DNA of 64,000 nt from a virus, in the IMG/VR virus record IMGVR_UViG_3300020183_000008, positions 1-64,000 of that record. One strand, written 5' to 3'. Under the pieces are notes generated by a model. That model was not told the origin of the DNA. It saw nothing but the letters and a program-made list of their open reading frames with translations, and made no database searches. Every line of letters starts with the position of its first letter. Position 1 is the stretch's first letter. Positions 6,001 through 28,024 of this stretch are shown here, in pieces. The position numbers were made by a program, and so were the translations under genes.

Positions 6001-9000
6001 AGTTTACGGTGATAATTCTCCAGTTAGAACCTCCAAACCCTGTACCATTTGTTACATTCGTAACTTTGAATTTAGCATAAACAGTCTGGTCGCTTCCTAA
6101 GTGGAAAATCAAATAGCCCTTAGTAGGATTCGTTGATTGTTTCCAAGAATCTAACCAACCTGAAACAGATGGATCGAGAGAGTCTAAGTTATTGAAAACA
6201 TCGATATAGATGAATCCAGGATTCATCGAGCTGACTGTACCAGATGAAAATCTAAAGTATGACCCACCTGGACGCGAGGCTGATGTACTGTCGGAGAAGT
6301 AATAATATTCACTATAACCGCTTATAGGACCTTGGCTTCCAGTGACACCTTGGACACCTGTAGCTCCTTGGATGCCTGTGGTACCTTGGACTCCAGTAGT
6401 ACCATCGATTCCGCGAACACCAGTTAAACCCTGAACTCCTGTTTGACCTTGAACACCGGTTTCACCTTGGACTCCAGTTACACCTTGAATTCCCTGAACA
6501 CCTGTCGTGCCTTGGACACCAGTGGCACCTTGGATGCCAGTTTCACCTTGGATCCCCGTGGTGCCTTGAACTCCTGTCTCACCTTGCACACCAGTGCTTC
6601 CCTGAACTCCTGTGGTGCCTTGGACGCCCGTAGCACCCTGTACACCTGTAGCACCCTGTACACCCGTAGCTCCCTGAACACCTGTGGCTCCTTGGACTCC
6701 AGTAGCTCCTTGGACGCCCGTAGCTCCCTGAACACCTGTGGCTCCTTGGACGCCCGTAGCTCCTTGGACGCCCGTAGCTCCTTGGACGCCCGTAGCTCCT
6801 TGGACGCCCGTAGCTCCTTGGATGCCTGTAGCTCCTTGGACTCCTGTTGTGCCTTGAATTCCGGTTTGACCTTGGACTCCCGTAGCCCCTTGGACACCAG
6901 TCTGACCTTGGACTCCTGTGGCTCCTTGGACTCCGGTTACGCCTTGCACCCCTGTCTCACCTTGAACACCAGTAGCACCTTGAACTCCGGTTGTGCCTTG
7001 AACTCCAGTGTTGCCTTGGACTCCTGTCGTGCCTTGAACTCCGGTTGTGCCTTGAACTCCAGTGTTGCCTTGGACTCCTGTCGTGCCTTGAACTCCAGTG
7101 GAACCTTGGACTCCCGTAGCTCCTTGAACACCAGTGGAACCTTGGACTCCCGTAGCTCCTTGAACACCAGTGGAACCTTGAACCCCCGTAGCTCCCTGAA
7201 CACCTGTTGTGCCTTGGACACCTGTGGTGCCTTGGACTCCAGTAGCTCCTTGGACACCTGCCGTGCCCTGAACCCCTGTTACACCTTGTACTCCAGTAGC
7301 TCCTTGGACTCCAGTAGCTCCTTGGACTCCTTGGACTCCTGTCGCTCCTTGGACTCCTGTCGTGCCTTGGACTCCAGTAGCTCCTTGGACACCTGTTACA
7401 CCTTGGACTCCAGTAGCACCTTGCACACCCGTTGCACCCTGAACACCGGTTGTACCCTGAACTCCTGTCGTGCCTTGGACTCCCGTGGTTCCTTGGACTC
7501 CAGTCGTCCCTTGTACACCGGTTTGACCTTGAATACCCGTAGATCCTTGGACACCTGTGGCTCCTTGGACTCCTGTCGCTCCTTGGACTCCTGTTGTGCC
7601 TTGGACTCCAGTAGCTCCTTGGACACCTGTTACACCTTGGACTCCAGTCGTACCCTGAACTCCAGTAAATCCTTGGATCCCTGTTTGACCTTGGACTCCA
7701 GTAGTTCCTTGGACTCCCGTTGTTCCCTGAATACCTGTGTTACCTTGGACTCCCGTCGTGCCTTGAATCCCGGTGGAGCCTTCAACTCCTGTCGTACCTT
7801 GGACACCGGTTACACCCTGAACCCCAGTCGCTCCTTGAACACCGGTTGTGCCTTGCACTCCCGTTGCACCCTGAACCCCAGTTGCTCCCTGAACACCGGT
7901 TGAGCCTTGCACTCCCGTTGCACCTTGAACTCCTGTCGTACCTTGGATACCGGTGACCCCTTGGACTCCGGTTAGACCTTGAACACCGGTGGTTCCTTGA
8001 ACTCCAGTAGCTCCTTGAACTCCAGTATTTCCTTGGACACCGGTGACCCCTTGGACTCCGGTTAGACCTTGAACACCGGTGGTTCCTTGAACTCCTTGGA
8101 CTCCGGTAGCTCCTTGAACTCCAGTATTTCCTTGGACACCTGTGGTGCCTTGGACTCCGGTAGCTCCTTGAACTCCAGTATTTCCTTGGACACCGGTGGT
8201 TCCTTGAACTCCAGTGGCTCCTTGGACACCTGTGGTGCCTTGGACTCCAGTTACACCTTGAACTCCCGTAGTTCCTTGAACTCCAGTAGCTCCTTGAACT
8301 CCAGTTGTACCTTGGACACCAGTAGCTCCTTGGACACCTGTTACGCCTTGGACTCCGGTTGCACCTTGAACCCCAGTGGTTCCCTGAACGCCTGTTGTGC
8401 CTTGGACTCCGGTAGCTCCTTGGATTCCGGTAGCTCCTTGGACTCCGGTAGCTCCTTGAACTCCAGTATTTCCTTGGACACCTGTGGTGCCTTGGACTCC
8501 CGTGGAGCCTTGGACACCTGTCGTGCCCTGAACACCCGTAACACCTTGAACTCCAGTATTTCCTTGGACACCGGTGGTTCCTTGAACTCCCGTGGAGCCT
8601 TGGACACCTGTCGTGCCCTGAACACCCGTAACACCTTGAACTCCAGTATTTCCTTGAACACCGGTCATTCCTTGGATACCCGTTGTTCCTTGGACACCTG
8701 TCGTGCCCTGAACACCCGTAACACCTTGAACTCCAGTATTTCCTTGAACACCGGTCATTCCTTGGATACCCGTTGTTCCTTGAACACCTGTCTGTCCTTG
8801 AAGACCTGTCTGACCTTGAACTCCCGTGGTTCCTTGAACTCCGGTTACACCTTGGACTCCGATTACGCCCTGAACTCCGGTTACACCCTGAACTCCGGTC
8901 GTGCCTTGAACTCCTTGGACACCTGTCGCACCTTGGACACCAGTAGCACCTTGAACACCAGTAGTGCCCTGAACTCCAGTGCTACCTTGAACACCGGTAG

Positions 9001-12000
9001 CTCCTTGAACACCGGTAGCTCCTTGAACTCCGGTAGTGCCTTGAATACCAGTCGTGCCTTGAATACCAGTCGTGCCTTGAATACCGGTTTCACCTTGGAC
9101 ACCAGTTGCACCTTGGACACCAGTTGTACCTTGGACACCGGTTACCCCTTGAATCCCCTGTACACCTGTGGATCCTTGCACACCGGTTGAGCCTTGAACA
9201 CCTGTCGTACCCTGGACACCAGTGGTTCCTTGAACTCCAGTGAACCCTTGAATACCTGTTACACCTTGGACTCCGGTTTCACCTTGTACACCTGTGGCTC
9301 CTTGAACTCCCGTGGAACCTTGAACTCCCGTAGCTCCTTGAACTCCTGTGGTTCCTTGAACTCCTGTGGTTCCTTGAACTCCCGTGGTTCCCTGAACACC
9401 AGTTACTCCTTGGACACCAGTTGCACCTTGGACACCAGTAGCACCTTGGACACCAGTTGCACCTTGGACACCTGTTTCACCCTGAATACCAGTCTGACCT
9501 TGCACACCTGTGGTGCCTTGGACTCCGGTAGTGCCTTGAACACCTGTGGTTCCTTGGACCCCTGTGGATCCCTGAACACCTGTGGTTCCTTGGACTCCAG
9601 TGGCACCCTGTACACCTGTAGATCCTTGAACTCCAGTGGAACCTTGAACTCCCGTAGCTCCTTGAACTCCAGTGGAACCTTGAACTCCCGTAGCTCCTTG
9701 AACACCCGTTGCACCTTGCACTCCAGTAGACCCTTGAACTCCGGTTGTGCCTTGCACTCCTGTTTCACCTTGGACTCCTTGAACACCAGTAGCTCCTTGA
9801 ACTCCTGTAGTTCCCTGAACACCAGTTTGACCTTGGACTCCGGTTTCACCTTGAACTCCTTGAACACCAGTTGTACCTTGCACTCCAGTCTGACCTTGGA
9901 CACCTGTCGTGCCTTGAACTCCTTGAACACCAGTTGTGCCTTGGACTCCGGTTGCCCCTTGAACCCCTGTAAATCCTTGAACACCTGTTAAACCCTGAAC
10001 TCCTTGAACACCTGTTAAACCCTGTACACCGGTTGTACCATCTACACCAAAAACACCGGTTGCACCCTGAACACCGGTTGTTCCAAAATCGCCTGCCGGT
10101 GCAAATGAGACGATCAATTCCTGATTATTTTGGAAAAGGTTTGATGCATCAACATAATTAACGGTAACGATTCTCCAGTTCGTTCCACCTAGACCTGTTC
10201 CATTTTCAACATTCAGAATTCTAAATTTTGCATAAATAGTCTGATTGTCACCTAGGTGGAAAATCAAATAACCTTTAGTAGGATTTGTTGATTGTTTCCA
10301 AGAGTCCAACCAACGATATACGGACTCATCGAGATTCGATGCAGTAAAGGCATCGATATAAACAAATCCTGGTGTCATCGTAGCCGGATTTGCCGCTGAA
10401 AATCTTACGAATGATGCACCAGGTCTTGATGCTGTGGTGCTAGTTGAAAATTTGTAATATTCACTATTTCCGCTGATAGGTCCTCGGTTACCTGTAGGTC
10501 CTTGCAAACCTGTGGCACCTTGGATTCCTGTTGTACCTTGAACTCCAGTCAAACCCTGAATTCCGGTGATCCCCTGAACACCAGTTTCACCTTGGACACC
10601 TGTGGCACCTTGAATTCCAGTGTCACCCTGAACTCCAGTTAAACCCTGAACTCCTTGGACACCTGTAGCTCCTTGGATTCCAGTTTCTCCTGTGCCTTGA
10701 ATACCTGTGGCTCCTTGAACACCCGTGCCACCACCAGGGATACCCGTAGCACCTTGGATTCCAGTTTCACCCTGTACCCCCTGTACCCCCGTGGTTCCTT
10801 GGACTCCTGTTGTGCCTTGGACTCCTGTCGTGCCTTGGACTCCTGTCGTGCCTTGGACTCCAGTAGTTCCCTGAACACCTGTCGTGCCTTGGACGCCAGT
10901 GGCACCTTGAATACCTGTTAAGCCAACTGGACCTTGAATACCGATTTGACCTGTCGCACCTTGAACGCCAGTAGACCCTTGCACTCCCGTGGTGCCTTGA
11001 ACGCCTGTTACACCTTGAACCCCTGTAGATCCTTGGACACCAGTAGATCCTTGAACACCAGTAGATCCTTGGACACCTGTAGCACCTTGAACACCAGTCT
11101 CACCTTGGACACCAGTATTACCTTGAATACCTGTGGAGCCTTGGACTCCAGTTTCACCTTGGATACCAGTCTCACCTTGCACCCCTGTGGAGCCTTGAAC
11201 ACCGGTTTCACCTTGGACTCCAGTGTTGCCTTGGACTCCTGTCGTGCCTTGAACTCCAGTGGAACCTTGGACTCCCGTAGCTCCTTGAACACCAGTGGAA
11301 CCTTGGACTCCCGTAGCTCCTTGAACACCAGTGGAACCTTGAACCCCCGTAGCTCCCTGAACACCTGTGGTTCCTTGGACTCCAGTAGCTCCTTGGACTC
11401 CAGTAGCTCCTTGGACTCCAGTAGCTCCTTGAACTCCAGTAGCTCCTTGAACTCCCGTAGCACCCTGAACACCTGTTGCACCCTGCACACCTGTCGTGCC
11501 TTGGACACCTGTGGTGCCTTGGACTCCAGTAGCTCCTTGGACACCTGTCGTGCCCTGAACCCCTGTTACACCTTGTACTCCCGTTGCACCCTGAACACCT
11601 GTCGTGCCTTGTACACCTGTGGTTCCTTGGACTCCAGTAGCTCCTTGGACTCCAGTCGTCCCTTGTACACCGGTTTGACCTTGAATACCCGTAGATCCTT
11701 GGACACCCGTGGCTCCTTGGACTCCTGTCGCTCCTTGGACTCCTGTCGTGCCTTGGACTCCAGTAGCTCCTTGGACACCTGTTACACCTTGGACTCCAGT
11801 AGCACCTTGCACACCCGTTGCACCCTGAACACCGGTTGTACCCTGAACTCCTGTCGTGCCTTGGACTCCCGTGGTTCCTTGGACTCCTGTCGTTCCTTGG
11901 ACCCCTGTGGATCCCTGAACCCCCGTGCTTCCTTGAACCCCAGTAGATCCCTGAACACCTGTCGCGCCTTGAACACCAGTGAAGCCTTGGACTCCTGTGG

Positions 12001-15000
12001 TGCCTTGAACTCCTGTAACACCTTGCACTCCTGTCGTGCCTTGCACACCGGTTGCACCTTGAACTCCTGTCGAACCTTGGACACCGGTTGCACCTTGGAC
12101 TCCTGTCGTGCCTTGGACTCCGGTTGCACCTTGAACGCCTGTGGTACCTTGAACACCTGTCTGACCTTGGACTCCAGTAGTACCTTGGACTCCTGTTGCC
12201 CCTTGGACACCAGTATCTCCTTGCACACCCCGAACACCGGTCTGACCTTGGACTCCAGTAGCACCTTGGACACCAGTTGAGCCTTGAACTCCAGTTAAAC
12301 CAACCGGACCTTGAATACCTATTTGACCAGTAGCACCTTGGACACCAGTTGCACCTTGAATACCGGTTGTGCCTTGCACTCCTGTGGTGCCTTGTACTCC
12401 CGTTGTTCCCTGAATACCCGTTGCACCTTGCACTCCAGTAGACCCTTGAACTCCGGTTGTGCCTTGCACTCCTGTTTCACCTTGCACACCTGTCGTGCCT
12501 TGTACTCCCGTTGTTCCCTGAATACCCGTTGCACCTTGCACTCCAGTAGACCCTTGAACTCCGGTTGTGCCTTGCACTCCTGTTTCACCTTGCACACCTG
12601 TCGTGCCTTGGACACCCGTTGCACCTTGCACTCCAGTAGACCCTTGAACACCCGTAGTGCCTTGGACTCCGGTAGCTCCTTGGACTCCAGTTGCACCTTG
12701 AACACCAGTCGTACCTTGGACTCCTGTGGTGCCTTGAACACCAGTTACTCCCTGAACTCCCGTAGCTCCCTGAACACCTGTCGTACCTTGGACTCCTGTA
12801 GCACCCTGAACACCTGTCGCGCCTTGAACACCAGTGAAGCCTTGGACTCCTGTGGTGCCTTGAACACCTGTAGTGCCTTGAACACCAGTTTCACCTTGGA
12901 CACCTGTTGTGCCTTGAACACCTGTAGTGCCTTGAACCCCAGTTTGACCTTGAACTCCGGTGGAGCCTTGCACACCTGTCGTGCCTTGAACACCGGTTGT
13001 ACCCTGAACACCGGTTGTACCCTGAACTCCTGTTACACCTTGTACACCAGTCGAACCCTGGACTCCTGTGGATCCTTGGACTCCAGTGTTACCTTGAACA
13101 CCAGTAGCTCCTTGGACTCCGGTTACACCTTGGACTCCCGTAGTGCCTTGGACACCCGTTGCACCTTGGACTCCGGTATTTCCTTGAACACCTGTGAATC
13201 CTTGCACACCAGTTAAACCAACAGGACCTTGAGTACCTATCTGACCGGTGACTCCTTGAACTCCTGTAGATCCTTGGACTCCGGTAGTACCCTGAACACC
13301 CTGAACACCGGTTGCACCTTGGACTCCCGTTGTGCCCTGTACTCCAGTAGCTCCTTGAACACCTGTGGTGCCTTGAATTCCGGTGGCACCCTGAACTCCG
13401 GTTACGCCTTGGACACCCGTCTCACCTTGAACTCCGGTGGTGCCTTGGACACCCGTGGTTCCTTGGACACCAGTTACACCTTGGACTCCAGTTTGTCCTT
13501 GAACACCCGTAGCACCCTCAACTCCGGTTGCACCTTGGACTCCAGTGGCACCCTGTACACCGGTGGTGCCTTGGACTCCAGTAGTTCCTTGGACTCCCGT
13601 TGTTCCCTGAATACCTGTGTTACCTTGGACTCCCGTCGTGCCTTGAATCCCGGTGGAGCCTTCAACTCCTGTCGCTCCTTGGACACCTGTTGTGCCTTGG
13701 ACTCCAGTTGTGCCTTGTACCCCAGTTTGACCTTGAACACCAGTTGAGCCTTGGACACCTGTAGTTCCCTGAACACCTGTCGCGCCTTGGACTCCTGTAT
13801 TTCCTTGAACACCTGTAGAACCTTGAACACCAGTCTGACCTTGGACACCTGTAGCTCCTTGAACACCAGTGGTTCCCTGAACACCGGTAGTTCCCTGAAC
13901 ACCAGTCTGACCTTGAACACCAGTAGTTCCATGAACACCAGTAGTTCCCTGAACACCAGTTACTCCTTGAAATCCAGTCTGACCTTGAACACCAGTAGCA
14001 CCTTGCACTCCTGTCGTGCCTTGGACTCCAGTTACGCCTTGGACTCCTGTCGTGCCTTGGACTCCCGTGGTGCCTTGCACTCCTGTCGTGCCTTGGACTC
14101 CAGTTACGCCTTGGACTCCTGTCGTGCCTTGGACTCCTGTCTGACCTTGGACACCAGTTACACCTTGTACACCGGTTACACCCTGTACTCCTGTGTTTCC
14201 TTGAACCCCAGTAGATCCCTGAACACCTGTCGCGCCTTGAACACCAGTGGCTCCCTGAATTCCCGTAGAGCCTTGAACTCCAGTTTCTCCTTGAATTCCT
14301 TGAACTCCGGTAGATCCTTGGACTCCTGTCTGACCCTGAATACCTGCCACACCCTGAACACCAGTAGCACCTTGATCACCTGCTGGAGCAAAGGTTACAA
14401 TCAACTGTTGACCATCTACGAACAAATCGGATGCATCGACATATTCAACCGTAACAAGACGCCAGTTTTCCCCACCGAAGCCGCTTCCATTTTCAACGCT
14501 AATAACTTTGAATTTTACGTAAACACTTTGATCATCACCTAGGTGGAAAATCAAATAACCCTTGGTGGAATTAGTTGCACTATCCCAACTATCGATCCAC
14601 GCCGCGACCGAAGGATCAAGAGATCCTTGGTTCGTAAAGGCATCGATATAAACGTAGCCTGGAGTCATCGAACTTGGGTCATCCGATGAAAATTTCACAT
14701 AAGTTCCACCAGGACGTGTTGCACTCGTATCTGAAGAGAATATGTAATATTCACTATACCCGCTGATAGGTCCTCGGTTACCGGTGACACCTTGGACACC
14801 GGTTGCACCTTGAATACCGGTCATTCCTTGAACACCGGTCATTCCTTGAACACCCTGAACACCGGTCGTACCTTGGACACCGGTTGCACCTTGCACTCCA
14901 GTCTCACCTTGTACACCGGTATCACCTTGTACACCTTGAACACCGGTCGTACCTTGGACACCGGTTGCACCTTGCACTCCAGTCTCACCTTGGACACCAG

Positions 15001-18000
15001 TGGTTCCTTGAACACCAGTAGCTCCCTGGACTCCTGTGGCTCCATCTACACCTGTAGCCCCTTGAACTCCCGTAGTTCCTTGGACTCCTGTAGCCCCCTG
15101 AACACCTGTCGTGCCTTGGACTCCTGTGGCACCCTGAACACCAGTGGCTCCTTGGACTCCCGTGGTTCCTTGGACACCTGTCGTTCCTTGGACACCTGTG
15201 GCACCATCTACACCAAAAACACCGGTTGCACCTTGAACTCCTGTAGCACCTTGCACACCCGTTGCACCCTGAACACCGGTTGTACCCTGAACTCCTGTCG
15301 TGCCTTGGACTCCCGTGGTTCCTTGGACACCTGTCGTTCCTTGGACCCCTGTGGATCCCTGAACCCCCGTGCTTCCTTGAACCCCAGTAGATCCCTGAAC
15401 ACCTGTGGTGCCTTGAACACCAGTTTCACCTTGGACACCGGTTGCACCTTGGACTCCTGTCGTGCCTTGAACACCTGTCTGACCTTGGACTCCAGTGGCT
15501 CCCTGAACTCCTGTTTCACCTTGAACACCTGTTTCACCTTGAACACCAGTTCTACCTTGGATGCCTGTCTGACCTTGGACACCTGTCGTGCCTTGCACAC
15601 CGGTTGCACCTTGGACTCCTGTCGTGCCTTGCACACCGGTTGCACCTTGGACTCCTGTCGTGCCTTGCACACCGGTTGCACCTTGAACTCCTGTCGAACC
15701 TTGCACACCGGTCTGACCTTGGACTCCAGTGGAGCCTTGAACACCAGTCTGACCTTGGACTCCTGTGGTGCCTTGAACACCAGTCTGACCTTGGACTCCA
15801 GTGGCTCCTTGGACACCTGTCTGTCCTTGGACTCCAGTGGCTCCTTGCACTCCCGTTGAACCTTGCACTCCCGTTGAACCTTGGACTCCTGTGGAACCTT
15901 GCACTCCCGTTGAACCTTGGACTCCCGTAGCCCCTTGGACTCCCGTTGAACCTTGGACTCCCGTAGCCCCTTGGACTCCTGTGGAACCTTGCACTCCCGT
16001 TGAACCTTGGACTCCTTGGACTCCAGTAGATCCTTGGACTCCCGTTTGACCTTGAACACCGGTCTGACCTTGGACTCCAGTAGCACCTTGGACACCAGTT
16101 GAGCCTTGAACTCCGGTTAAACCAACCGGACCTTGAATACCTATTTGACCAGTAGCACCTTGGACACCAGTAGCACCTTGGACACCAGTAGTGCCCTGTA
16201 CCCCTTGGACTCCTGTGGAACCTTGGACTCCTGTTGTGCCTTGGACTCCTGTGGCTCCCTGAACGCCTGTCGAACCTTGGACTCCGGTGGCTCCTTGGAC
16301 TCCGGTGGCTCCTTGGACTCCTGTAGTCCCTTGAACTCCAGTAGCACCTTGAACACCAGTTGATCCTTGAACTCCAGTAGCACCTTGAACACCAGTTGAT
16401 CCTTGAACACCAGTTGATCCTTGGACTCCCGTGGTGCCTTGAACACCGGTAGCTCCTTGGACCCCTGTAGTGCCTTGAACACCAGTTGATCCTTGGACCC
16501 CTGTAGTGCCTTGAACACCTGTAGCTCCTTGGACCCCTGTAGTGCCCTGTACACCTGTGGCACCTTGGACTCCTGTTTCACCTTGGACTCCTGTAGTTCC
16601 TTGAACTCCAGTCGATCCTTGGACACCGGTTCTACCTTGTACACCTGTAGCACCTTGGACACCCGTAGCGCCTTGGACTCCTGTCTGACCTTGGACACCA
16701 GTTACACCTTGGACACCTGTGGTTCCTTGGACACCTGTAGTGCCTTGCACTCCTGTGGTTCCTTGGACTCCAGTGGTGCCTTGAACGCCCGTGGTACCTT
16801 GGACTCCTTGAACCCCAGTGGCTCCTTGGACACCTGTTACACCTTGCACTCCCGTTGTGCCTTGGACTCCTGTTGCACCTTGAACGCCCGTGGTGCCTTG
16901 AACACCTGTATTTCCTTGAACACCTGTATTTCCTTGGACTCCTGTCGTGCCTTGGACTCCTGTCGTGCCTTGGACTCCTGTCGTGCCTTGCACTCCTGTC
17001 GTGCCTTGGACTCCAGTTACGCCTTGGACTCCTGTCTGACCTTGGACACCAGTTACACCTTGTACACCGGTTACACCCTGTACTCCTGTGTTTCCTTGAA
17101 CCCCAGTAGATCCCTGAACACCTGTCGCGCCTTGAACACCAGTGAAGCCTTGGACTCCTGTAGCACCCTGAACTCCGGTTGTTCCTTGAACACCAGTCTG
17201 ACCTTGGACACCTGTGTTACCTTGGACTCCAGTGGTGCCTTGAACACCAGTAGTTCCATGAACCCCAGTGGTGCCTTGAACACCGGTCTGACCTTGGACA
17301 CCAGTAGCACCTTGGACACCAGTTGAGCCTTGAACTCCGGTTAAACCAACCGGACCTTGAATACCTATTTGACCAGTAGCACCTTGGACACCAGTAGCAC
17401 CTTGGACACCAGTAGTGCCCTGTACACCTGTCGTGCCTTGGACTCCTGTCGTGCCTTGGACTCCTGTGGAACCTTGGACACCAGTTACACCTTGGACTCC
17501 TGTGGATCCCTGAACACCAGTGGCTCCTTGGACTCCTGTCGTGCCTTGGACTCCTGTGGAACCTTGGACACCAGTTACACCTTGGACTCCTGTGGATCCC
17601 TGAACACCAGTGGCTCCTTGGACACCAGTTGAGCCTTGAACACCAGTAGTTCCCTGAACCCCTGTCGCTCCCTGGACACCTGTGGCTCCTTGGACTCCAG
17701 TTGTTCCCTGAACTCCGGTAGTTCCTTGGACTCCCGTAGCTCCTTGGACTCCGGTTGTGCCTTGCACTCCTGTGGTTCCCTGCACCCCGGTTCTGCCTTG
17801 AACTCCAGTTTCACCTTGAACACCTGTCTGACCCTGTACTCCTGTGGCTCCCTGAACGCCTGTCGAACCTTGGACTCCGGTGGCTCCTTGGACTCCGGTG
17901 GCTCCTTGGACTCCTGTAGTCCCTTGAACTCCAGTAGCACCTTGAACACCAGTTGATCCTTGAACTCCAGTAGCACCTTGAACACCAGTTGATCCTTGAA

Positions 18001-19780
18001 CACCAGTTGATCCTTGGACTCCCGTGGTGCCTTGAACACCTGTTACACCTTGCACTCCCGTAGCACCTTGAACGCCCGTGGTGCCTTGAACACCTGTATT
18101 TCCTTGGACTCCTGTATTTCCTTGGACTCCTGTCGCGCCTTGGACTCCTGTCGCGCCTTGGACTCCTGTCGCGCCTTGAACCCCAGTGCTTCCTTGCACT
18201 CCCGTCTGACCCTGAACCCCAGTGCTTCCTTGCACTCCTGTAGCTCCTTGGACTCCTGTAGCTCCTTGGACTCCTGTGGCTCCTTGGACACCTGTCTGTC
18301 CTTGGACTCCCGTAGTGCCTTGGACACCTGTAGTGCCTTGCACTCCTGTGGTTCCTTGGACTCCAGTGGTGCCTTGAACGCCCGTGGTACCTTGGACTCC
18401 CGTAGTTCCCTGAACACCTGTCGTGCCTTGGACTCCTGTGGCACCCTGAACACCAGTGGCTCCTTGGACTCCCGTAGTTCCCTGAACACCTGTCGTGCCT
18501 TGGACTCCTGTAGAACCTTGTACACCAGTCGCACCTTGGACACCTGTAGCGCCTTGAACTCCTGTCGTGCCTTGGACTCCTGTAGAACCTTGTACACCTG
18601 TAGCGCCTTGGACACCAGTAGCACCTTGTACACCAGTCACACCGTACTGACCAGTTTGACCTTGAGCACCTTGAAGACCATCAGATCCGGTTACACCTTG
18701 AACACCAGTTTCACCTTGAACACCTGTTACACCTTGAACACCAGTTAAACCGACAATACCTGTGATACCTTGAACACCTGTTTGTCCGTAGATACCTGTA
18801 ATACCTTGAACACCTGTTTCACCAATAGCACCTTGCAAACCGGTTTCACCCGCAACACCGGTTTGACCTTGGACACCTGTAAATCCTGAAGGACCTTGTA
18901 CACCTTGTACACCTGTTGATCCTTGAACACCCGTGCGACCTTGAATACCCGTTGATCCTTGAACACCACCAACACCAGTAGCACCTTGAACACCAGTGAA
19001 ACCTGGACCTTGCAGACCTGTAGCACCCTGAACACCAGTGTTTCCGAGGGGACCTTGAACACCTGTCTGCCCAGCAACACCTTGAACACCTGTCTGCCCA
19101 GCGACCCCTGTGGCACCTTGGACACCAGTTTCACCTTGGACACCTGTAGATCCTTGAACTCCCTGAACTCCGGTAGCTCCTTGGACACCAGTGTCGCCTT
19201 GAACTCCGGTTGCACCCTGAACGCCGGTGGTTCCTTGAACACCTTGAACACCTGTGGTTCCTTGAACCCCAGTTCTTCCTTGGACACCTGTTACACCCTG
19301 AACTCCAGTTTGACCTTGAACACCTTGAACACCGGTACCACCTTGAAGACCTTGAGATCCTTGGATACCTTGCAATCCTTGGATACCGGTGTTGCCTTGA
19401 ACACCTTGGACTCCCGTGGTTCCCTGAACACCTGTGCTACCTTGAACACCCGTGGTTCCTGAAATACCTGTACTACCTTGAACACCAGTGAAACCTGGAC
19501 CTTGCAGACCTGTAGCACCTTGTGAGCCGATACCTGTCGTACCTTGCACACCAGTTACACCTTGCAGACCTCTAATACCCGTGGTGCCTTGTTGTGATTG
19601 AATCGTCGCAAACGAAGGCTTCCACTGTGAATCAGAAATGTCGAAGTAGTAAAACGCGTTAATGTTTTTAACGTAGCGTACTTCGTTTTCTTGAGGTGAG
19701 ACAACGCTAGATAAATCAGCGATGTTGTTTACAGCATAGGTGATTGCATAGGCTAATTGTTGGTAAAACGGAGTGCTCAT
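2..19780 (-). CDS. Giant collagen-like (Gly-X-Y) protein, at least 6593 aa, 3' end outside the window; probable virion fibre
   Basis: Manual translation: ATG at 19780 preceded by AAAGGA gives [65 protein letters not shown], then (G-V/I-Q-G-A/T/V/S/E/Q-T)n. The same frame was checked at the three globular inserts and at position 4. The long antisense shadow ORFs (starts 26, 2915, 6443, 8069, 14792, 18959) all keep one frame. The ORF track would list it if a stop existed. Confidence 0.93.
5939..6328 (-). repeat. Globular insert domain, copy 3
   Basis: [45 protein letters not shown]...[24 protein letters not shown]...[13 protein letters not shown]...SFAPA. Confidence 0.92.
10094..10480 (-). repeat. 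Globular insert domain, copy 2
   Basis: [45 protein letters not shown]...[24 protein letters not shown]...[13 protein letters not shown]...SFAPA. Confidence 0.92.
14381..14770 (-). repeat. Globular insert domain, copy 1 (~130 aa), in the collagen protein
   Basis: [45 protein letters not shown]...[24 protein letters not shown]...[13 protein letters not shown]...TFAPA. Confidence 0.92.
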
Positions 19781-19951: not shown

Positions 19952-21436
19952 GTGAATACTCTTAGTCTTTGTATGATTGTCAAAAATGAAGAATCTACGA
20001 TCGAAAGATGCTTAAATTCAACGCAAGATGTTTGCGATGAAATCATCATAGTAGATACGGGAAGTACCGACCGCACCAAAGAAATATTAAAGTCTTTTCC
20101 AAAAGTGAAAATTTTCGATTTCACATGGGTAGAGGACTTCGCTGCGGCGCGTAACGAAAGTTTCCGACACGCAACGAGCGACTTAATGTTCTGGTTGGAT
20201 GCGGATGATGTACTCAAAGAAAAAGACGTCCAAATTCTTCGCAAATACAAAAGCACCCCCTTGAATCAATTAGCTGACTGCTACGTTGGTAAATATCAAT
20301 ATAGCCATGATAGTTATGACAATGTTCTAACAACGCTGATGCGAGAAAGAATCTTTAAAAGAAGCCCTTTAATTAAATGGAAATACAAAATTCACGAGTG
20401 TATCCCCCTCAACTGCTTCCGAAAAGTAGAAAATACAGATTTTGAAGTACACCACTACAAGACTGCCCCTCAAATTCAAAGATCTGAGGGTAGGAATTTA
20501 AGAATACTAAAAGCGTGCGTAGATGATCCATCCGAGCGGTGCCCGCGCTATGAATTTTATTATGCCAAAGAATTAGCTATCGTTAGAAAGTATGATGAAG
20601 CCGTAACATGGTTTAAGGAATACTTAAAGCACTGGGATTTTTTCGAAGATGCCCATTACGCTTATTATAAATTAGCTGAAATCGCTCTTGAGAAAAGAGA
20701 TTTCGATGAAGCAGTCAATCAATGCATGGATGCTTTAAAATTAGACATGCGGAAAGCCGACCTGTATTGCTTGCTAGGTTTGATTTTCATAAATCGTGAG
20801 CGTTGGGACTTGGCGAAATTCTGGTACGAGGCTGCTCTAAATATGCCAAGACCCGATGACTCATACGGATTCTTCGATATGGACAGACACACCTTCTCAC
20901 CAAACTTTCAGCTTTCTTATGTTTTTTATAAACTTGGAGATTTCGATTCTGCTTTAAAACATATCAACAGGTGTTTGCAATTTAGACCTAAAGACCATCA
21001 AGCTCTCGTGAACAAGGCTTTTATAGAAAAAGAACAAAAACTAAAAATAAGAAAGAATCACCACAACCTAGCTATTTATATCCCCTTCTCATTTGATGAG
21101 AACAACCCAAACATTAGAATTCGCAAACTGAATTTAGTTGAAGAACTCAAAAACAAAAATCTGGATGCAGATATCATTCAAGATTTTCCAAGTTTGATGA
21201 ACTATGACAGAATCATCGCGCATAGCCCCTTGAACCCCAAAGAGATGAGACTACTACAAAGAAGCGGGAAAGTGGTGTGCTTAGATATAGCTGAAGGGGT
21301 ATTCTCGAATTCATTTGATGAACAAATAAGCAAATATGATATAGTTTTATGCTCCTCTAGTAAAATCAAAGAATATTGCTTAAACTTGAACATGAATTCA
21401 GTTCATCTTCCTGATAGTCATGAGGCTTCAATATGA
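19952..21436 (+). CDS. GT2 glycosyltransferase with TPR repeats, plus a C-terminal half of a GT-B fold
   Basis: LSLCMIVKNEE, IVDTGSTDRT, DFAAARN, WLDADD (DxD), IHE and RNLRIL motifs; helical TPR-like repeats follow. Confidence 0.9.
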   Translation: MNTLSLCMIVKNEESTIERCLNSTQDVCDEIIIVDTGSTDRTKEILKSFPKVKIFDFTWVEDFAAARNESFRHATSDLMFWLDADDVLKEKDVQILRKYKSTPLNQLADCYVGKYQYSHDSYDNVLTTLMRERIFKRSPLIKWKYKIHECIPLNCFRKVENTDFEVHHYKTAPQIQRSEGRNLRILKACVDDPSERCPRYEFYYAKELAIVRKYDEAVTWFKEYLKHWDFFEDAHYAYYKLAEIALEKRDFDEAVNQCMDALKLDMRKADLYCLLGLIFINRERWDLAKFWYEAALNMPRPDDSYGFFDMDRHTFSPNFQLSYVFYKLGDFDSALKHINRCLQFRPKDHQALVNKAFIEKEQKLKIRKNHHNLAIYIPFSFDENNPNIRIRKLNLVEELKNKNLDADIIQDFPSLMNYDRIIAHSPLNPKEMRLLQRSGKVVCLDIAEGVFSNSFDEQISKYDIVLCSSSKIKEYCLNLNMNSVHLPDSHEASI

Positions 21437-23778
21437 TTTCCGTTGTTTGGTGCGGAATGGGTGGCGGATCCTACGCCGCAAAACAATTGCGCCCAATGAT
21501 CGAATCTCTTGGTATGAAATTGACAATCATATCGGAATGGGCAGATGCGGATGTGCCCTGGAAAATAGATACATGGCAAGAAGAAGTTAAGAAGCATGAC
21601 ATCGTTATCTGCCCTACGGATCAAAACAAATTTCCATTCAAAGGGAATAACAAAGTCACCCATTTTATGGCTTTGGGTATGCCTGTCATCGCTTCACCTC
21701 TTCAGTCCTATAGAGAAATAATCGAACATGGCGTGTCGGGCTTCATCGCAGACAATTTCTCAGATTGGAAAAAGCATCTTAAAACTTTACGGGACAACCA
21801 CGATTTAAGAAAAACGATCGGTGAAACAGCGCGAAGTAAAGTGACAAAAGAATATTCGATCCAATCCACCGCTGATAAAGTTCTTTCTTTATTTGAAAAT
21901 CAGTCTAAAACTATTGATATCATCATCCCGAATTACAATAACACCCGCTATCTTCTCACGACACTCGAAAGCCTAAAACGCAACACTGTCGGTTTGTACA
22001 AGGTAGCCATCGTTGATTCATCTTCAGATGACATCTCACCGATAGAGAATTTCGTAGAGAAAAACTCAAATAATTTTTCCCTTTGGCGATTACCTGTACG
22101 TTCGTGCTTTTCAAAAGCCGTGAATTTAGGAATGTCTCGTACAGGTTCAAAATGGGTTATGGTGGGAAATAACGACTTGCTTTTTACCAAAGGATGGGAT
22201 GCCCCACTTCGAGAATTTTTAGAAAAAAATCCAAATGCTATGGTTCAACCTCTTTCGAATTGTGACAAAGGTTGGTTACATAACTATGAATTGAAAACAA
22301 AAAGCGGTCTCTCTTTGGAAGCTGGTATCCACAAGCTCGATACCGTGGACATCTTTGATATTGAACAAAGCACTCTAACTCGAAATGAAATCATCGAACG
22401 TGAAAAACTAGCATTTTATAGTGTTATTTTTGATCGTCGGTTATTAAGTCTAATCGGTGACCTTGATGAAGAGTTTCTGAATGGTGGCGAAGATTTCGAT
22501 TTTTGCTACCGAGCTCGGAAAGCGGGGTGGTCATTTTTTTCAATTCATAACTCTTTTGTTTTTCATTTTGGAGGAAAAACCCGAAAAGTCTCTGAAGATG
22601 AAAATTATGAGAGACACCATGAAGAAGATAGGTACAATAATTCGAGACTAAATCGAAAACTTTCAAAATCCGTTGTTGCATTTTATTTAGGCGCTGGTTG
22701 GGAAAAATGGGATGAAACAAATCTCATTTCTGGTGGTATTGGGGGAAGCGAAACAGCAGCGATCTGGATGGCAAGAGAATTGTCTAAGTTCGGCTATCAG
22801 GTAAAAGTTTTTGCTGATCCTGCACATGAACATCAGGACTCTAGTGGATTGGATGTTGAGTATATCCACTACAGTAAATTTAAAAGGTACGCTGAAAAAA
22901 CTTTCATCGACTTTTTAGTTTGCTCAAGAACAGTGGAACCTTTGCACGGGTTGATCCATGCTTATAGAAAATACGTGTGGATTCATGATGTGTTTATCGG
23001 TTCCAACCGAAACATGGATGTATGTCTCGATGATGTGACTAAATACCTCGTGTTGTCCGAATGGCACCGTGATTTTGTTTCTGAACATCACAGTATTCCC
23101 AAAAACAAAATCTTCATGACGACAAACGGCATAGATCCGAATAGATACGCTGAAGTCAACAACATCAAGAAGGTTCAAGGTCAAATCTTTTATTCTTCAT
23201 CCCCAGATAGAGGTCTGGATACGCTCTTGTATCTAGGTGAATATCTAAAAGATCGTGTACCTAATTTCAAAATCAAAGTCGCTTATGGCTTCAATAACTG
23301 GGAAAAAGCAGTTCTATTTAGAAATAATCCTAGAGAAGTTGAAGAAATGAGAAAGCTGAAAGAGGCTTTAAAGCGACCTTTCGTGGATTTCTTGGGACGT
23401 ATTGACCAGAATCAACTTGCAAAAGTTCAGATGGAATCATCGGCTTGGATGTACCCTAGCCGGTTCACTGAAACGAATTGCATCACAGCTATCGAGGCAG
23501 GTTGGTCTAAAAACGCGATTTTAGCGACACATCTTGCGGGTGTAACCACTACCGTAAAAGATGGAGGGACTCTTATCCACGGAGATGCATACACGAAAGA
23601 ATATCGAGAGAAATTCTTAAATGAAGCGGTAAAATTACTGAACGATCAAGAATACCTGATCGAGCAACAAGAACGAGCCTACGCCCGTATGCAAAGGTTT
23701 ACTTGGGCTAACGTCGCAAAACAATGGCATGAAATGTTCCAACAAGATGTTTACAAGGAAATTCAATGGTCACCTTAA
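21433..23778 (+). CDS. Multidomain glycosyltransferase (GT-B C-terminal half + GT2 + GT4-like)
   Basis: MALGMPVIASP; IDIIIPNYN...NNDLLF...GEDFDFCYRA...HFGGKT; GGSETA...YSSSPDRGL...YPSRFTETNCITAIEA; ATGA overlap with the upstream gene. Confidence 0.9.
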   Translation: MISVVWCGMGGGSYAAKQLRPMIESLGMKLTIISEWADADVPWKIDTWQEEVKKHDIVICPTDQNKFPFKGNNKVTHFMALGMPVIASPLQSYREIIEHGVSGFIADNFSDWKKHLKTLRDNHDLRKTIGETARSKVTKEYSIQSTADKVLSLFENQSKTIDIIIPNYNNTRYLLTTLESLKRNTVGLYKVAIVDSSSDDISPIENFVEKNSNNFSLWRLPVRSCFSKAVNLGMSRTGSKWVMVGNNDLLFTKGWDAPLREFLEKNPNAMVQPLSNCDKGWLHNYELKTKSGLSLEAGIHKLDTVDIFDIEQSTLTRNEIIEREKLAFYSVIFDRRLLSLIGDLDEEFLNGGEDFDFCYRARKAGWSFFSIHNSFVFHFGGKTRKVSEDENYERHHEEDRYNNSRLNRKLSKSVVAFYLGAGWEKWDETNLISGGIGGSETAAIWMARELSKFGYQVKVFADPAHEHQDSSGLDVEYIHYSKFKRYAEKTFIDFLVCSRTVEPLHGLIHAYRKYVWIHDVFIGSNRNMDVCLDDVTKYLVLSEWHRDFVSEHHSIPKNKIFMTTNGIDPNRYAEVNNIKKVQGQIFYSSSPDRGLDTLLYLGEYLKDRVPNFKIKVAYGFNNWEKAVLFRNNPREVEEMRKLKEALKRPFVDFLGRIDQNQLAKVQMESSAWMYPSRFTETNCITAIEAGWSKNAILATHLAGVTTTVKDGGTLIHGDAYTKEYREKFLNEAVKLLNDQEYLIEQQERAYARMQRFTWANVAKQWHEMFQQDVYKEIQWSP

Positions 23779-24413
23779 ATGACTTGAAAGAAGCACCAGA
23801 ATATTTATCTCTGAAGGAAAAGGTAAAATCTTGCGGGTGTGATGATCCTGATGTGTTTGGTGATAGCTGTTATGGTGGATATTTACTTCAACAAAACGCT
23901 GAAGAGTTTGCCGCTCTTATTTATTTTTTGAAGAAACAGGGTCCATTCAACAATTACGTTGAAATCGGATCCGCATCAGGTGGAAATCTCCGCTTTATTT
24001 TTGAAAATGTGGGATTCTATAGAGCGTTTTCTTTCGATGATCTTATGCACCCACACGCTGTACACCAGCCTGGAAATTCTTGGCGTTTCGGTGAACGCTT
24101 AACCCGTTACATCGGGGATTCTCATCATATAGAAGCCGAAAAAATGTTATCAAGATGGTTAAATAAACAAGTCATCGACTGCGTTTTCATCGATGGAGAC
24201 CACTCGCTTTCAGGAGTTTTACAGGACTATGACATGGTAAAGCCCCACCTAACGGCAAGGTCTTTACTGATTTTTCACGACACGCATTCAATACCAGATA
24301 TTGGAATAGCTACGAAACATTTAATTGAGGGTAATGAAATTAAACCATTGGCTCATTTCGTAGCAGAACTTAATCGTTGTGGAATTCTTGTAGCTCAATT
24401 TTCAGGCAAGTAA
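23766..24413 (+). CDS. Class I SAM-dependent methyltransferase (Methyltransf_24-like)
   Basis: VEIGSASGG, GDSH, VFIDGDHS...DY, IFHDT. Confidence 0.85.
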   Translation: MVTLNDLKEAPEYLSLKEKVKSCGCDDPDVFGDSCYGGYLLQQNAEEFAALIYFLKKQGPFNNYVEIGSASGGNLRFIFENVGFYRAFSFDDLMHPHAVHQPGNSWRFGERLTRYIGDSHHIEAEKMLSRWLNKQVIDCVFIDGDHSLSGVLQDYDMVKPHLTARSLLIFHDTHSIPDIGIATKHLIEGNEIKPLAHFVAELNRCGILVAQFSGK

Positions 24414-24820
24414 CAAACCACACTTTTAGGTAGTTTCAAATCCTTCACCAAATCAGGTGAAATTTCACATTTCTCTTCCTTGCCGTAGTGAGGCTCTTTT
24501 TCAAGTAAATCGAACCATTCTTTGATGCTTTTCAATTTACCTGAGCCAGGACCAGCTTTCTCGCCAAGAGCCCATTTGAGCAAAACCACACCCGCTTCAG
24601 CGTAGGGGTTTGTATAGGCTCCACCGAACGCCTCCAGAAAAATGTAAGGGTTTTTGGATGCTAAATTTTTCCAAAAAGATTTTGATGAAGTCCCCGCTTC
24701 AGATTTAGATTTGAAAACTATAAAAGTTTTTCCTTCATCGCTTATTAACATGTGACCTGATTCAAATGGTTTATGCTCTTTAATCTGATAGTCTTTTTCA
24801 GCAACACGAATAGTTTTCAT
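24395..24820 (-). CDS. Hypothetical protein
   Basis: 141-aa ORF, GAGG SD, in a minus-strand gene run. Confidence 0.65.
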   Translation of the reverse strand: MKTIRVAEKDYQIKEHKPFESGHMLISDEGKTFIVFKSKSEAGTSSKSFWKNLASKNPYIFLEAFGGAYTNPYAEAGVVLLKWALGEKAGPGSGKLKSIKEWFDLLEKEPHYGKEEKCEISPDLVKDLKLPKSVVCYLPEN

Positions 24821-24827
24821 TTTTACC

Positions 24828-25232
24828 TCACTGAGTTACTTTTGATCCTTTTGTCATCAAAAAACGGTCGAGTTCTTCTTCTTCACTAATTTGGTCTAAA
24901 AATTCTCGCGTAACAAGAGGTAGATTAGTTTTGATAATCTCAGCTAATTGAATAGGTTCAATGTTACCTTTCAAGCAGTATAACATCGTCTGTAAAACTG
25001 TCTCATTGATATTTTTCAAAAGAGCATCATCTTTTAGAACACCACGCGCTGTCGCAATTAAGGATACATACAAAAAATGAACTCTTGCTAAAGAAATCAA
25101 CAAAGTGTTTTGAGGATCAGCCTCATCATCGATCAAAATATTAGCATACTCCGAAGATTTCGTGATAGCTTCTAAAACAGCCTCACCTATTTTTTCACCG
25201 ATTTCTTCGGCTTCCTCTTTTGGTTCTCGCAT
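24828..25232 (-). CDS. Hypothetical protein
   Basis: 134-aa helical ORF with AGGG SD-like sequence. Confidence 0.65.
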   Translation of the reverse strand: MREPKEEAEEIGEKIGEAVLEAITKSSEYANILIDDEADPQNTLLISLARVHFLYVSLIATARGVLKDDALLKNINETVLQTMLYCLKGNIEPIQLAEIIKTNLPLVTREFLDQISEEEELDRFLMTKGSKVTQ

Positions 25233-25242
25233 TTTTACCCTT

Positions 25243-26163
25243 TCAGAGACTTTCTATCAAAGCTGCCCATTTTTGTGCAATTTGAAATGAAGTGAACTCT
25301 TTTGATTTCTCATACCCTAAACTTAGAATCTTTAGTCTACCAGCTTCAGAAAGAGATGATATTCTAATCAAATTCGAAGTGATAGATTCAAAATTATGGT
25401 AGATAAATCCGTTCAAACCGTGGGTAATGGCGTTTCTATAGGATGGAATCGGAGCGGCGAGAGGTATTAACCCGTTCGCCCAGGATGTAATCACTTTGAT
25501 CAAACTTTTATTGACACCTGTGTTGAAATCATGGGCACACAAAGCCACATGAGCTTCCTGATATGGATTCAACCACCAATAAGGATTACCACCATAATCA
25601 TCAGAATCCCTGAAATAATCCCGACCATCGTTAGGGTATCCGATAACTTTTAAATGCCAGCCCGCATTTTCAATATGAGGTCGATACATTTCAGCTAAAC
25701 TGGGGTTACCACCTGAATATACGACTGTATTTAAATTATGTTTTTTCGGTCGAGGCATCGAGAAAAAAACATCATCAGCGGGGTCATCGATATGATAGCA
25801 GTGACCCATCTTGTTGAGAGTCTCCGTTGTATACGCAAGATTGGCGCTGACACATACGACGCCATCAACGGATGAGAAAATTTCTTTCTGTAAAGGAAAG
25901 CCAAAAATCGACTCCATGTGATGGAATAAAGTTTTTGTACCTTTAGCTTTCAAATATTCAATAGCTGAAAAAGTTTGTTCATCAACTGAACAAAAAATAG
26001 CAGCATCATAGTTGTCGAGATGAAGCGAGTTAGGGTGTACTATTCGACTGTCCCAACCCATCAGATTAAATTGGGTGTGAATCAAATTTTTGATGCGTAG
26101 ATTTGGATCCTTGAGATTAAAATAAGGTGCATCAAAAACCCAAGCTACTTTTTTGAAACTCAT
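25243..26163 (-). CDS. GT-B fold glycosyltransferase-like protein
   Basis: Start moved to MSFKKV (ATGA overlap with the upstream stop); KVITSWANGLIPLAAPIPSYRNAITHGLNGFI; ends F...IAQKW like GT4 enzymes. Confidence 0.75.
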   Translation of the reverse strand: MSFKKVAWVFDAPYFNLKDPNLRIKNLIHTQFNLMGWDSRIVHPNSLHLDNYDAAIFCSVDEQTFSAIEYLKAKGTKTLFHHMESIFGFPLQKEIFSSVDGVVCVSANLAYTTETLNKMGHCYHIDDPADDVFFSMPRPKKHNLNTVVYSGGNPSLAEMYRPHIENAGWHLKVIGYPNDGRDYFRDSDDYGGNPYWWLNPYQEAHVALCAHDFNTGVNKSLIKVITSWANGLIPLAAPIPSYRNAITHGLNGFIYHNFESITSNLIRISSLSEAGRLKILSLGYEKSKEFTSFQIAQKWAALIESL

Positions 26164-26753
26164 AGCAAACCTAGTCTCTTTCGTTCTTGAGTCCAAAAGT
26201 CAGGTTTTACAACGCGAATTTTATAACGAATTTCATCGACTACATTCCAATAGGCTAATCTTGTTTTTTGTTGGACTTCAGGGGACTCCTGATAGAGATA
26301 TTCATATTCAGGAAAATAACCGAACTGAATTTCTTCAACTTCCAACGTGCATTTCAACCAAAATTCAGAAATGCTTCCCTTACGAACAAGAGTATTTCCA
26401 CAAGGCTTGTGAGTTGGGCTGAAGAAAGAAAAAGTGAATTCGTTGAATCTATTATTCGTATGGAAAGGATTCGCTACGGTGTGATGTGTATGCGCATACG
26501 GAACTTTGATATTCCAGATGATGTCTGGTTTAGACACACGCCACATCTCTTCTAAACAATGAACAAACCCTTTGACAGGATCGAGATGCTCCAAACAGTG
26601 AGATGAGTACAGCTCATCTACTGAATCATCCTCGAAAGGCAGAGGCTCTGTATTCAAGTCTACAACTCGGTGCACGCATGGATGCTCGAAACAATCAATA
26701 TTGATATAACCCGCAAGAGGAATCGGACCACCACCAAGTTCAATTTTTACCAT
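26160..26753 (-). CDS. SAM-dependent methyltransferase (Methyltransf_11-like)
   Basis: IELGGG...GYINID, LPFEDDSVDELYSSHCLEHL, EEMWRVSKP. Confidence 0.85.
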   Translation of the reverse strand: MVKIELGGGPIPLAGYINIDCFEHPCVHRVVDLNTEPLPFEDDSVDELYSSHCLEHLDPVKGFVHCLEEMWRVSKPDIIWNIKVPYAHTHHTVANPFHTNNRFNEFTFSFFSPTHKPCGNTLVRKGSISEFWLKCTLEVEEIQFGYFPEYEYLYQESPEVQQKTRLAYWNVVDEIRYKIRVVKPDFWTQERKRLGLL

Positions 26754-28024
26754 TGTATTACTCCTAAACCACGTCCTAGTTTGAATTCGTAGTAATGTTT
26801 GCCTTTTTTATATTTTTCAAAGACTTCTTTTTTATCCGATTGAGTCCCACTGATAAATAAGTAACCACCCTCTTTTAGACTTGCCAAAGCCTCTGCGTAC
26901 TTCAAATCAGTCAAAAGGCTGTCGGAAAAATGTAACCAATCGACTGAATTAGGTTTCAAACTTTCCCAACGGGTTTCTGATGAAAAATTTGAATAGGTAG
27001 TATTCGTCGATGATAAAACTCCAACGGATCTAGCAATAGTATTCAGACCGCTTTGCAAGATAGCTTCACAAACTGTGAAATACAGAGTGCCCCTTTGGGT
27101 TCCGACCTCTAAAAACGATCCTTCTTTATTCTTCAGAAGCACTGAAAAAATCTGATAGAAAGGCTCGACGAGAGAAGAGAATTCGCAGCCTTTTAACCAG
27201 TTTAAGTCCGGTGTTTTTACGCAGCGACTTTCTTTCAAAACTGTTTCAAGATCAGATCCTTCACCCATCCTCAAACTTTCCAATTTGCGCGTGAGATTGT
27301 CAGCTTTAGTAGCTTTGGTGAACGAGCTAGGGTTATCTTGATTCGGATGTATATTCTCCATTTGAGGAGTCCATTTCATCCAAATTTTATCATACCAGAC
27401 GCTCTTGATGTCTTCGGCATGACTGAACGTCGTGATTTTTCGCAACATCTTCTCATCACTTCGAACATAAGAAAAATGATGGCAGATTAGCTCATCAGGG
27501 TAAAAAGTATGCCACGTATGACCGTGCTCTACGATTACAGCACGAGCTTTTGAAAAGCGCACAGACCCATCAGTTTTCGTAAAAGAGGGTAAAGCCTCGA
27601 CGAGATTAGCGACTGCCCATGAGCGAGTTTTCCAATAAACTTGATGCGGTGATAGGTACACTGAATGTATGTCGTTTTTGATTCTCTGAATTTGTATATG
27701 CAAATCACTGTGGTTGTACATCTCATCATCATCAACGATGAAACACCAACCAATACCTTTTTCTCTCAAATAGTGAAGACCAAAATTTCTTTGATCCTCT
27801 TCTGTCTTCCACGAACTGGAAACAATTTCTATTTTTTTGAGAGGATCGTAGATATTCAAAATAGTTTGATAGGTACTCAACAAACCTGCATCGTTTACTG
27901 AACCATTCCAAGGATGGAAATTCAGTAAAAAAACAATCTTATCTACGCAATAGTAACACCGTCTTACAGACTCGGCAAGATACCCTGAATCTTCGTACAC
28001 GACGTAAACAGCAGCGACCTTCAT
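26747..28024 (-). CDS. GT2-like glycosyltransferase fused to a degenerate methyltransferase-like domain
   Basis: QRNFGL, IVDDDEMY, HHFSYVR, KITTFSHA; C-terminal FLEVGTQRG and LKEGGYL; AGGAG SD. Confidence 0.75.
   Translation of the reverse strand: MKVAAVYVVYEDSGYLAESVRRCYYCVDKIVFLLNFHPWNGSVNDAGLLSTYQTILNIYDPLKKIEIVSSSWKTEEDQRNFGLHYLREKGIGWCFIVDDDEMYNHSDLHIQIQRIKNDIHSVYLSPHQVYWKTRSWAVANLVEALPSFTKTDGSVRFSKARAVIVEHGHTWHTFYPDELICHHFSYVRSDEKMLRKITTFSHAEDIKSVWYDKIWMKWTPQMENIHPNQDNPSSFTKATKADNLTRKLESLRMGEGSDLETVLKESRCVKTPDLNWLKGCEFSSLVEPFYQIFSVLLKNKEGSFLEVGTQRGTLYFTVCEAILQSGLNTIARSVGVLSSTNTTYSNFSSETRWESLKPNSVDWLHFSDSLLTDLKYAEALASLKEGGYLFISGTQSDKKEVFEKYKKGKHYYEFKLGRGLGVIQW

Follow-up and report, generated by a model that had tools for sequence, protein, structure and literature searches.

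Enzymes whose active site lies between two proteins have been described in the case of Alg13/Alg14, the eukaryotic uridine diphosphate N-acetylglucosamine (UDP-GlcNAc) transferase, and the bacterial and archaeal EpsE/EpsF are split likewise; fused and reverse-order relatives of these glycosyltransferases (GTs) also exist (PMC8993221). A comparable division was observed in a 64,000-nucleotide stretch of viral DNA (positions 1 to 64,000 of the IMG/VR record IMGVR_UViG_3300020183_000008), hereafter the window, which is part of a 155-kb source record that is about 35% complete. Two consecutive open reading frames (ORFs) of this window, ORF1 (protein P0001) and ORF2 (P0002), carry at their adjoining ends the N- and C-terminal halves of a single GT of the GT-B fold (Table 1). 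To our knowledge, naturally split GT-B enzymes were previously known essentially from one lineage, that of Alg13/Alg14 and EpsE/EpsF. What is new here is an independent GT-B split in huge phages, whose halves form termini of two multi-transferase proteins and whose family contains all partition states side by side. This second case, from a GT4-like family, is well sampled.

The phage pair shares with Alg14/Alg13 and EpsE/EpsF a GT-B enzyme cut between its Rossmann domains into two polypeptides, with the N-terminal piece on the acceptor side and the C-terminal piece on the nucleotide-sugar side, and fused and reverse-order forms are common to the phage family and the Alg13/Alg14 type. However, another GT-B family is involved, since the phage C-half matches Glycos_transf_1, and neither half-domain had an Alg14 (PF08660) or Glyco_tran_28_C (PF04101) match in Pfam, even at an E-value of 10. 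Moreover, unlike the small stand-alone proteins Alg14 and Alg13, the phage halves are the ends of two multi-transferase proteins, are phage-encoded, and would probably serve a protein substrate rather than a lipid-linked sugar.

The initial annotation of the locus had proposed that about 125 residues of the ORF1 C-terminus and about 155 residues of the ORF2 N-terminus align collinearly with an intact, one-piece paralog encoded at 25243-26163 (P0003/P0025). This collinearity was recovered in the searches, in which the C-half (P0002 residues 10-156) matched P0003 residues 162-316 with an E-value of 6e-11, and the N-half (P0001 residues 381-480) matched P0003 residues 26-128, with an E-value of only 0.027 when taken alone. 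The motif pairs listed at the outset, PNIRIR/PNLRIK, NYDRII/NYDAAI, IVLCSS/GVVCVS, HLPDSHE/HIDDPAD, VVWCG/VVYSG and LRPMIESLG/YRPHIENAG, were all present in the alignments. As far as alignment goes, the decisive comparison is that with P0012, a 636-aa intact metagenomic relative recovered with the C-half, which agrees with the paralog and in which both halves are matched in one chain and in order: its residues 3-106 match P0001 372-472 (E-value 4.5e-13) and its residues 143-287 match P0002 2-148 (E-value 1.7e-41, 49% identity). In addition, P0002 residues 46-151 were placed in Glycos_transf_1, Glyco_trans_1_4 and Glyco_trans_1_2 above the Pfam gathering scores (window positions 21433-21909; PF00534, 34.6 bits against a cut-off of 26.4; PF13692, 36.7 against 27; PF13524, 32.4 against 25).

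The fold of both pieces was addressed by means of AlphaFold2 (AF2) models. In the model of ORF1 (predicted local distance difference test score, pLDDT, 92.6), residues 373-485 form six strands alternating with five helices, in the same order as in the N-domain of the P0025 model, and the chain stops 6-9 residues past the last strand of this domain, with few disordered residues there. The P0025 model (pLDDT 93.2) is a two-domain GT-B, and its best structural matches in Foldseek were the GT4 enzymes BshA, MshA, PimA, GtfA and PglA (probability 1.0, template modelling scores of 0.6-0.75), at sequence identities of about 10-14%; weak profile matches of the C-half also pointed to PglA and PimA. In contrast with these GT4 enzymes, the split family lacks the E-x7-E motif, in place of which a Lys / Ser-Asn / Lys and Tyr pattern is invariant. 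The interdomain linker of P0025 sits between the strand at residues 122-124 and the strand at residues 146-150, and both the alignments and the models mapped the break to this inter-Rossmann linker, where it had been placed from the start. Two Rossmann-like beta/alpha domains with a linker and a cleft were found in the P0025 model and the half alignments, and on the combined reading of alignments and models the ORF1 C-terminus and the ORF2 N-terminus are the N- and C-domains of one GT4-like GT-B.

At the junction, the ATG of ORF2 overlaps the TGA of ORF1 (ATGA, a 4-nt overlap) and is preceded by a GAGG Shine-Dalgarno (SD) sequence, both features being seen in the sequence as initially reported. 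ORF2 lies in the -1 frame relative to ORF1, and a stop 3 codons upstream of its ATG closes this frame. The split is kept in three IMG/VR contigs of 57-61% identity (L001-L003) as a pair of 492 and 778 aa, with a junction of the form GAGGGA...TAA-A-ATG, whose frame offset differs from that of the ATGA in the window. Similarly, twelve further ORF1 homologs of 485-521 aa, with 43-81% identity in the half-domain, stop at the same ...H[LI]PDS[HY]E.. motif, and the same start point was observed in ORF2 homologs. In the complete 470-kb phage G001, the genome carries a single N-half and a single C-half, placed 4.4 kb apart: the former at the end of a 693-aa protein with GT2, tetratricopeptide repeat (TPR) and methyltransferase domains, and the latter opening a 994-aa protein downstream, with six other ORFs intervening. 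In the 424-kb contig L015 and in L013, a protein of 145 aa consists of the N-half by itself, and the C-half is fused to a GT2 domain only. The ratio of nonsynonymous to synonymous substitution rates (dN/dS) between L001 and L003 was 0.047 in the N-half and 0.051 in the C-half, with values of 0.017-0.113 in the other domains. Judged from these comparisons, the split is real, old and under selection.

The G001 proteins presented additional domains. An S-adenosylmethionine (SAM)-methyltransferase domain was gained between the TPR and the N-half of the 693-aa protein (L006:1492-3570), and another one, resembling the P0012 tail, at the C-terminus of the 994-aa protein (L004:5989-8970). A further 875-aa protein of this phage (L007:793-3420) combines a methyltransferase with a GT2-TPR module like that of ORF1, and its C-terminal region looks like a GT9 heptosyltransferase by eye, which makes it one more variation on the modular arrangement.

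The distribution of the half-domain was assessed by an exhaustive HMMER search with an N-half profile in 1.84 billion representatives, which retrieved 124 proteins that were classified with local hidden Markov models. The N-half was placed at the protein end, that is, split, in 39 representatives (26 of at least 250 aa and 13 short), and was directly followed by the C-half in 61 (24 stand-alone enzymes of about 300 aa and 37 within larger proteins); two representatives had the reverse order, C-half first and N-half last, and the remainder were fragments or unclear. Many of the large single chains carry GT2, TPR, N-half, C-half, GT2 and GT4, which is the module order of the window, and the fused P0060 and P0072 are 1274 and 1298 aa long, compared with the 494+781 = 1275 aa of the window pair. 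The joined forms have a median linker of 14 aa and the split forms a median tail of 2 aa after the last conserved Glu; therefore, the cuts are confined to the interdomain linker, with the break lying within about 3 residues of the N-domain end in every split form.

An unrooted maximum-likelihood tree of 60 GT2-TPR-N-half proteins (31 split and 29 fused) contained at least 9 changes between both states, at least 7 of them forced by well-supported branches, and several multi-member split clades were set apart by fused proteins. Since the tree is unrooted, fission and re-fusion are not distinguishable in it. The window falls in a clade made up of split forms only (13-14 representatives, support 100), whose branches reach about 0.4-0.7 substitutions per site. 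The initial annotation had also raised the possibility of a recently fissioned enzyme of about 1270 aa; the existence of fused proteins in the same order, such as P0060, bears out such an enzyme, but the fission is not recent, given the all-split clade of the window. The reverse-order proteins, P0050 (405 aa) and P0059 (284 aa), are both metagenomic; they start with the C-half and end with the N-half, and P0050 has the TPR in between. The IMG/VR relatives of P0059 match its C-half only, and both proteins could be circularly permuted forms or, alternatively, middle links in a split-enzyme chain.

No contigs beyond L001-L003 were found in IMG/VR with the ORF1-family alignment, a metagenome scan with the ORF1 family returned one weak, irrelevant locus only, and P0012 and P0050 had no relatives in IMG/VR. 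In a scan of bacterial genomes, no split-type GT-B halves were found in the 80 loci kept, though the GT2-TPR module was widespread.

When 47 split N-halves were compared with 67 joined ones, conservation fell on the same positions, namely a pair of Arg behind strand 1, Asp/Glu behind strand 4, Cys/Ser behind strand 5 and Asp..Glu behind strand 6, the strand-end residues being R21, R23, D77, E80, S101, D120 and E123. In a Rossmann domain, it is such strand-end positions that usually line the cleft. Among 81 C-halves, a Gly-Gly loop, K70 (100%), S71, K74, Y93 (98%) and R126 were conserved, and P0002 keeps G10, G11, K70, K74, Y93 and R126, with Gly at position 71. Because the split is old and selected for, the halves most likely re-join as proteins, as is the case in yeast Alg13/Alg14. 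It could be argued instead that both halves are functional yet no longer one enzyme, the N-half having a docking or substrate-binding role and the C-half a sugar-nucleotide-binding or regulatory one, separately or with other partners, a view favored by the inferential nature of docking, by the lack of E-x7-E in the family, and by P0050 and P0059, in which the halves recombine otherwise. We consider this unlikely, because the seven strand-end residues are common to split and joined N-halves, the C-half keeps the family-invariant K70 and Y93, the orphan halves occur 1:1 in complete genomes, and the order of modules along the genome is constant in every partition seen.

The 4-nt overlap between both ORFs, together with the occurrence of bypass and intein elements in phages, including an intein in another domain of a close ORF2 relative, would also allow a fused product to arise by programmed ribosomal frameshifting, bypassing or protein trans-splicing. 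Such a product is highly improbable, given that no slippery heptamer can be seen where the ORFs meet, that relatives would require the opposite shift (+1 versus -1), that other genes intervene between the halves in G001, L013 and L015, and that the break, with tails of 0-3 aa, has no intein fragments on either side. Finally, the initial annotation had named a sequencing frameshift at the junction as one result that would overturn its proposal. Such a frameshift, whether due to sequencing or to assembly, or else an inactivating mutation of recent date, in one gene of about 1275 aa is excluded at the level of sequence comparison: fused homologs of about 1274-1298 aa do exist and a one-base indel could fuse the ORFs owing to the -1 frame, but relatives of 57-61% identity retain the split although their junction and frame offset differ, and it is also kept in 12 or more homologs ending at the same motif and in the complete G001, where the halves are 4.4 kb apart. 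In addition, dN/dS is about 0.05 in both halves, and a stop closes the ORF2 frame 3 codons ahead of its ATG, which is preceded by an SD of its own.

The re-joining of the two halves as proteins is part of a wider model, which we regard as probable, of a two-subunit glycosylation machine with a GT-B divided at the linker. The domain content of the pair agrees with the four transferase sites counted by the initial annotation, namely the GT2 of ORF1, the split GT-B, and the GT2 and GT4 of ORF2. In ORF1, the LDADD motif of the GT2 is invariant, as are D83, D85 and D86, and the helices at residues 181-369 of the AF2 model constitute an all-helical stretch covering the TPR; in ORF2, the complete GT4 domain carries the E-x7-E motif (ETNCITAIE). 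According to this model, ORF1 and ORF2 are co-transcribed and translationally coupled via the ATGA overlap and the SD, which would favor equal amounts of both subunits. The N-domain of ORF1, on the acceptor side, would dock non-covalently onto the C-domain of ORF2, on the nucleotide-sugar side, rebuilding the catalytic cleft as in Alg14/Alg13 and EpsE/EpsF, and the docked pair would unite GT2-TPR, the rebuilt GT-B, GT2 and GT4 as the four transferase units of one complex. Indirect support for such a heterodimer comes from the 1:1 occurrence of orphan halves in complete genomes and from purifying selection acting on each half. The GT2-TPR unit, of the SgtA type, would prime Thr of the G-X-T repeats in a collagen-like fibre; extension of the glycan would fall to the split GT-B, the GT2 and the GT4, and its modification or capping to the methyltransferases encoded at 23766-24413 and 26160-26753. 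As to its origin, the split would derive from a single enzyme of about 1270 aa, still present in relatives, with the same cut made or healed several times.

The collagen-like ORF is divergent from ORF1 and starts 172 bp away from it. In this giant ORF, 93% of the residues are in G-X-Y runs, in which Gln (1007) or Thr (979) fills almost every Y position and Val most X positions. It contains roughly 1300 Thr that are potential O-glycosylation sites. In Clostridioides difficile, SgtA, a 358-aa protein with GT-A and TPR domains, adds beta-O-GlcNAc onto Thr of the BclA3 collagen repeats, and its gene adjoins bclA3 (PMC7157674). Residues 1-360 of ORF1 likewise comprise GT-A and TPR and adjoin a G-X-T-rich collagen-like gene; they differ from SgtA in being fused to half a GT-B, alongside three more transferase units. 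ORF1 residues 1-359 were 36% identical (E-value 1e-74) to a 354-aa GT2-TPR protein of Romboutsia, and the identity between bacterial GT2-TPR homologs and the fused P0072 was about 36-41%. A collagen-like ORF was found at no more than 5 kb from the GT2-TPR homolog in 60 of the 80 Bacillota loci (L017-L096), a neighbourhood that fits SgtA/BclA3-type glycosylation. Because the GT2-TPR module resembles the SgtA-type O-glycosyltransferases of collagen repeats, the adjacent collagen-like fibre is likely to be the substrate of the glycosylation machine. The module, of about 360 aa, is common in spore-forming Bacillota, often directly upstream of a collagen-like ORF.

Several points weigh against the machine as outlined. 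Docking, joint activity, the substrate and the order of sugar additions are inferred, and the ORF1 module was likened to SgtA by its architecture, with the Romboutsia protein as a sequence proxy. The ORF1 N-half had no Pfam match, and no conserved Glu was present at P0002 positions 60-90 in the 81 C-halves, so that the E-x7-E motif is lacking; for this reason, the chemistry of the split GT-B family, which is not certain, may differ from that of classical GT4 enzymes. Moreover, most split homologs are known as proteins alone, with their junctions and partners outside view, and artefacts of assembly or gene calling could account for some of the singleton split representatives. Further half-domains may also exist elsewhere in this phage, because the record is only about 35% complete.

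Mobile elements could also have a role in the way in which such cuts arise. Phage genes in pieces resulting from homing endonuclease insertion have been described in the split nrdA of Aeh1 and in T4-type phages (PMC3045599, PMC2988022), where, as in the present family, two conserved ORFs encode what was one enzyme gene; the products of the former reassemble. Unlike those genes, the window has no endonuclease gene between the pieces, the ORFs overlapping by 4 nt. Such a gene was found in the relative L015, in which an HNH_3 endonuclease gene (25.6 bits, cut-off 24.8) ends where the C-half gene starts and a second HNH gene separates the C-half-GT2 gene from the GT4 gene; in L013, a weaker HNH/NUMOD3 match occupies this latter position. 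These HNH genes at module borders suggest endonuclease-driven gene fission, and an endonuclease origin of the cut is put forward as a hypothesis for the family only. The free-standing HNH genes are located at L015:5396-6001, L015:7143-7781 and L013:7256-7990, and one of them has an AP2 domain. In addition, P0008, an ORF2 relative of 1181 aa with a C-half identity of 86%, harbours an intein that includes a LAGLIDADG endonuclease. The insertion separates ETNC from ITSIE and thus interrupts the catalytic E-x7-E motif in the C-terminal GT4 domain of this protein.

A more ambitious proposal is that the half-domains are catalytic docking modules, and that a conserved six-module glycan line (GT2, TPR, GT-B N-half, GT-B C-half, GT2, GT4) has been cut repeatedly into one to five genes, at module borders that vary and partly by homing endonucleases, with the split GT-B both catalysing and ordering the subunits, in the manner of the docking domains that hold consecutive subunits of polyketide synthases in order. 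This proposal is tentative, and we would not expect it to hold in full; if it did, such chains would have P0050 and P0059 as middle links. Fused, split, stand-alone and reverse-order forms side by side constitute a natural experiment on half-domain pairing and cut sites, and the two-subunit machine described above is a concrete, testable model of how huge phages might glycosylate a micrometre-scale collagen-like fibre. Self-assembling half-domains could also serve to build ordered multi-glycosyltransferase complexes.

Table 1. Features of the split GT-B locus and its neighbours in the window
Feature	Positions	Strand	Description
Giant collagen-like ORF	2-19780	-	>6593 aa, runs off the window; Pfam Collagen, E 1.7e-141
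ORF1 (P0001)	19952-21436	+	GTG start, 494 aa; GT2, TPR, N-half of split GT-B
GT2 (GT-A) domain, ORF1 residues 5-159	19964-20428	+	Pfam PF00535, E 8e-26
TPR domain, ORF1 residues ~199-360	20546-21031	+	Pfam TPR families
N-terminal Rossmann half of split GT-B, ORF1 residues 370-494	21059-21433	+	ends ...HLPDSHEASI
Junction	21422-21436	+	GAGG 21422-21425, 7-nt spacer, ATG 21433-21435, TGA 21434-21436
ORF2 (P0002)	21433-23778	+	781 aa; C-half of split GT-B, GT2, complete GT4 GT-B
C-terminal Rossmann half of split GT-B, ORF2 residues 1-159	21433-21909	+	Pfam Glycos_transf_1
Second GT2, ORF2 residues 163-383	21919-22581	+	Pfam PF00535, E 4e-16; PF13641
Complete GT4-type GT-B, ORF2 residues ~436-775	22738-23757	+	Pfam Glyco_transf_4 and Glycos_transf_1
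Methyltransferase gene	23766-24413	+	overlaps ORF2 end, same operon; Pfam Methyltransf_24, E 3e-11
Intact one-piece paralog of split GT-B (P0003/P0025)	25243-26163	-	306 aa, ATG at 26163
Second methyltransferase of the cluster	26160-26753	-	Pfam Methyltransf_11, E 7e-6

Beyond the features collected in Table 1, two small ORFs with no family match (24395-24820 and 24828-25232, both on the minus strand) lie between the operon and the intact paralog, and a 425-aa protein of the cluster, encoded at window positions 26747-28024 (minus strand), had a GT2 match below threshold.

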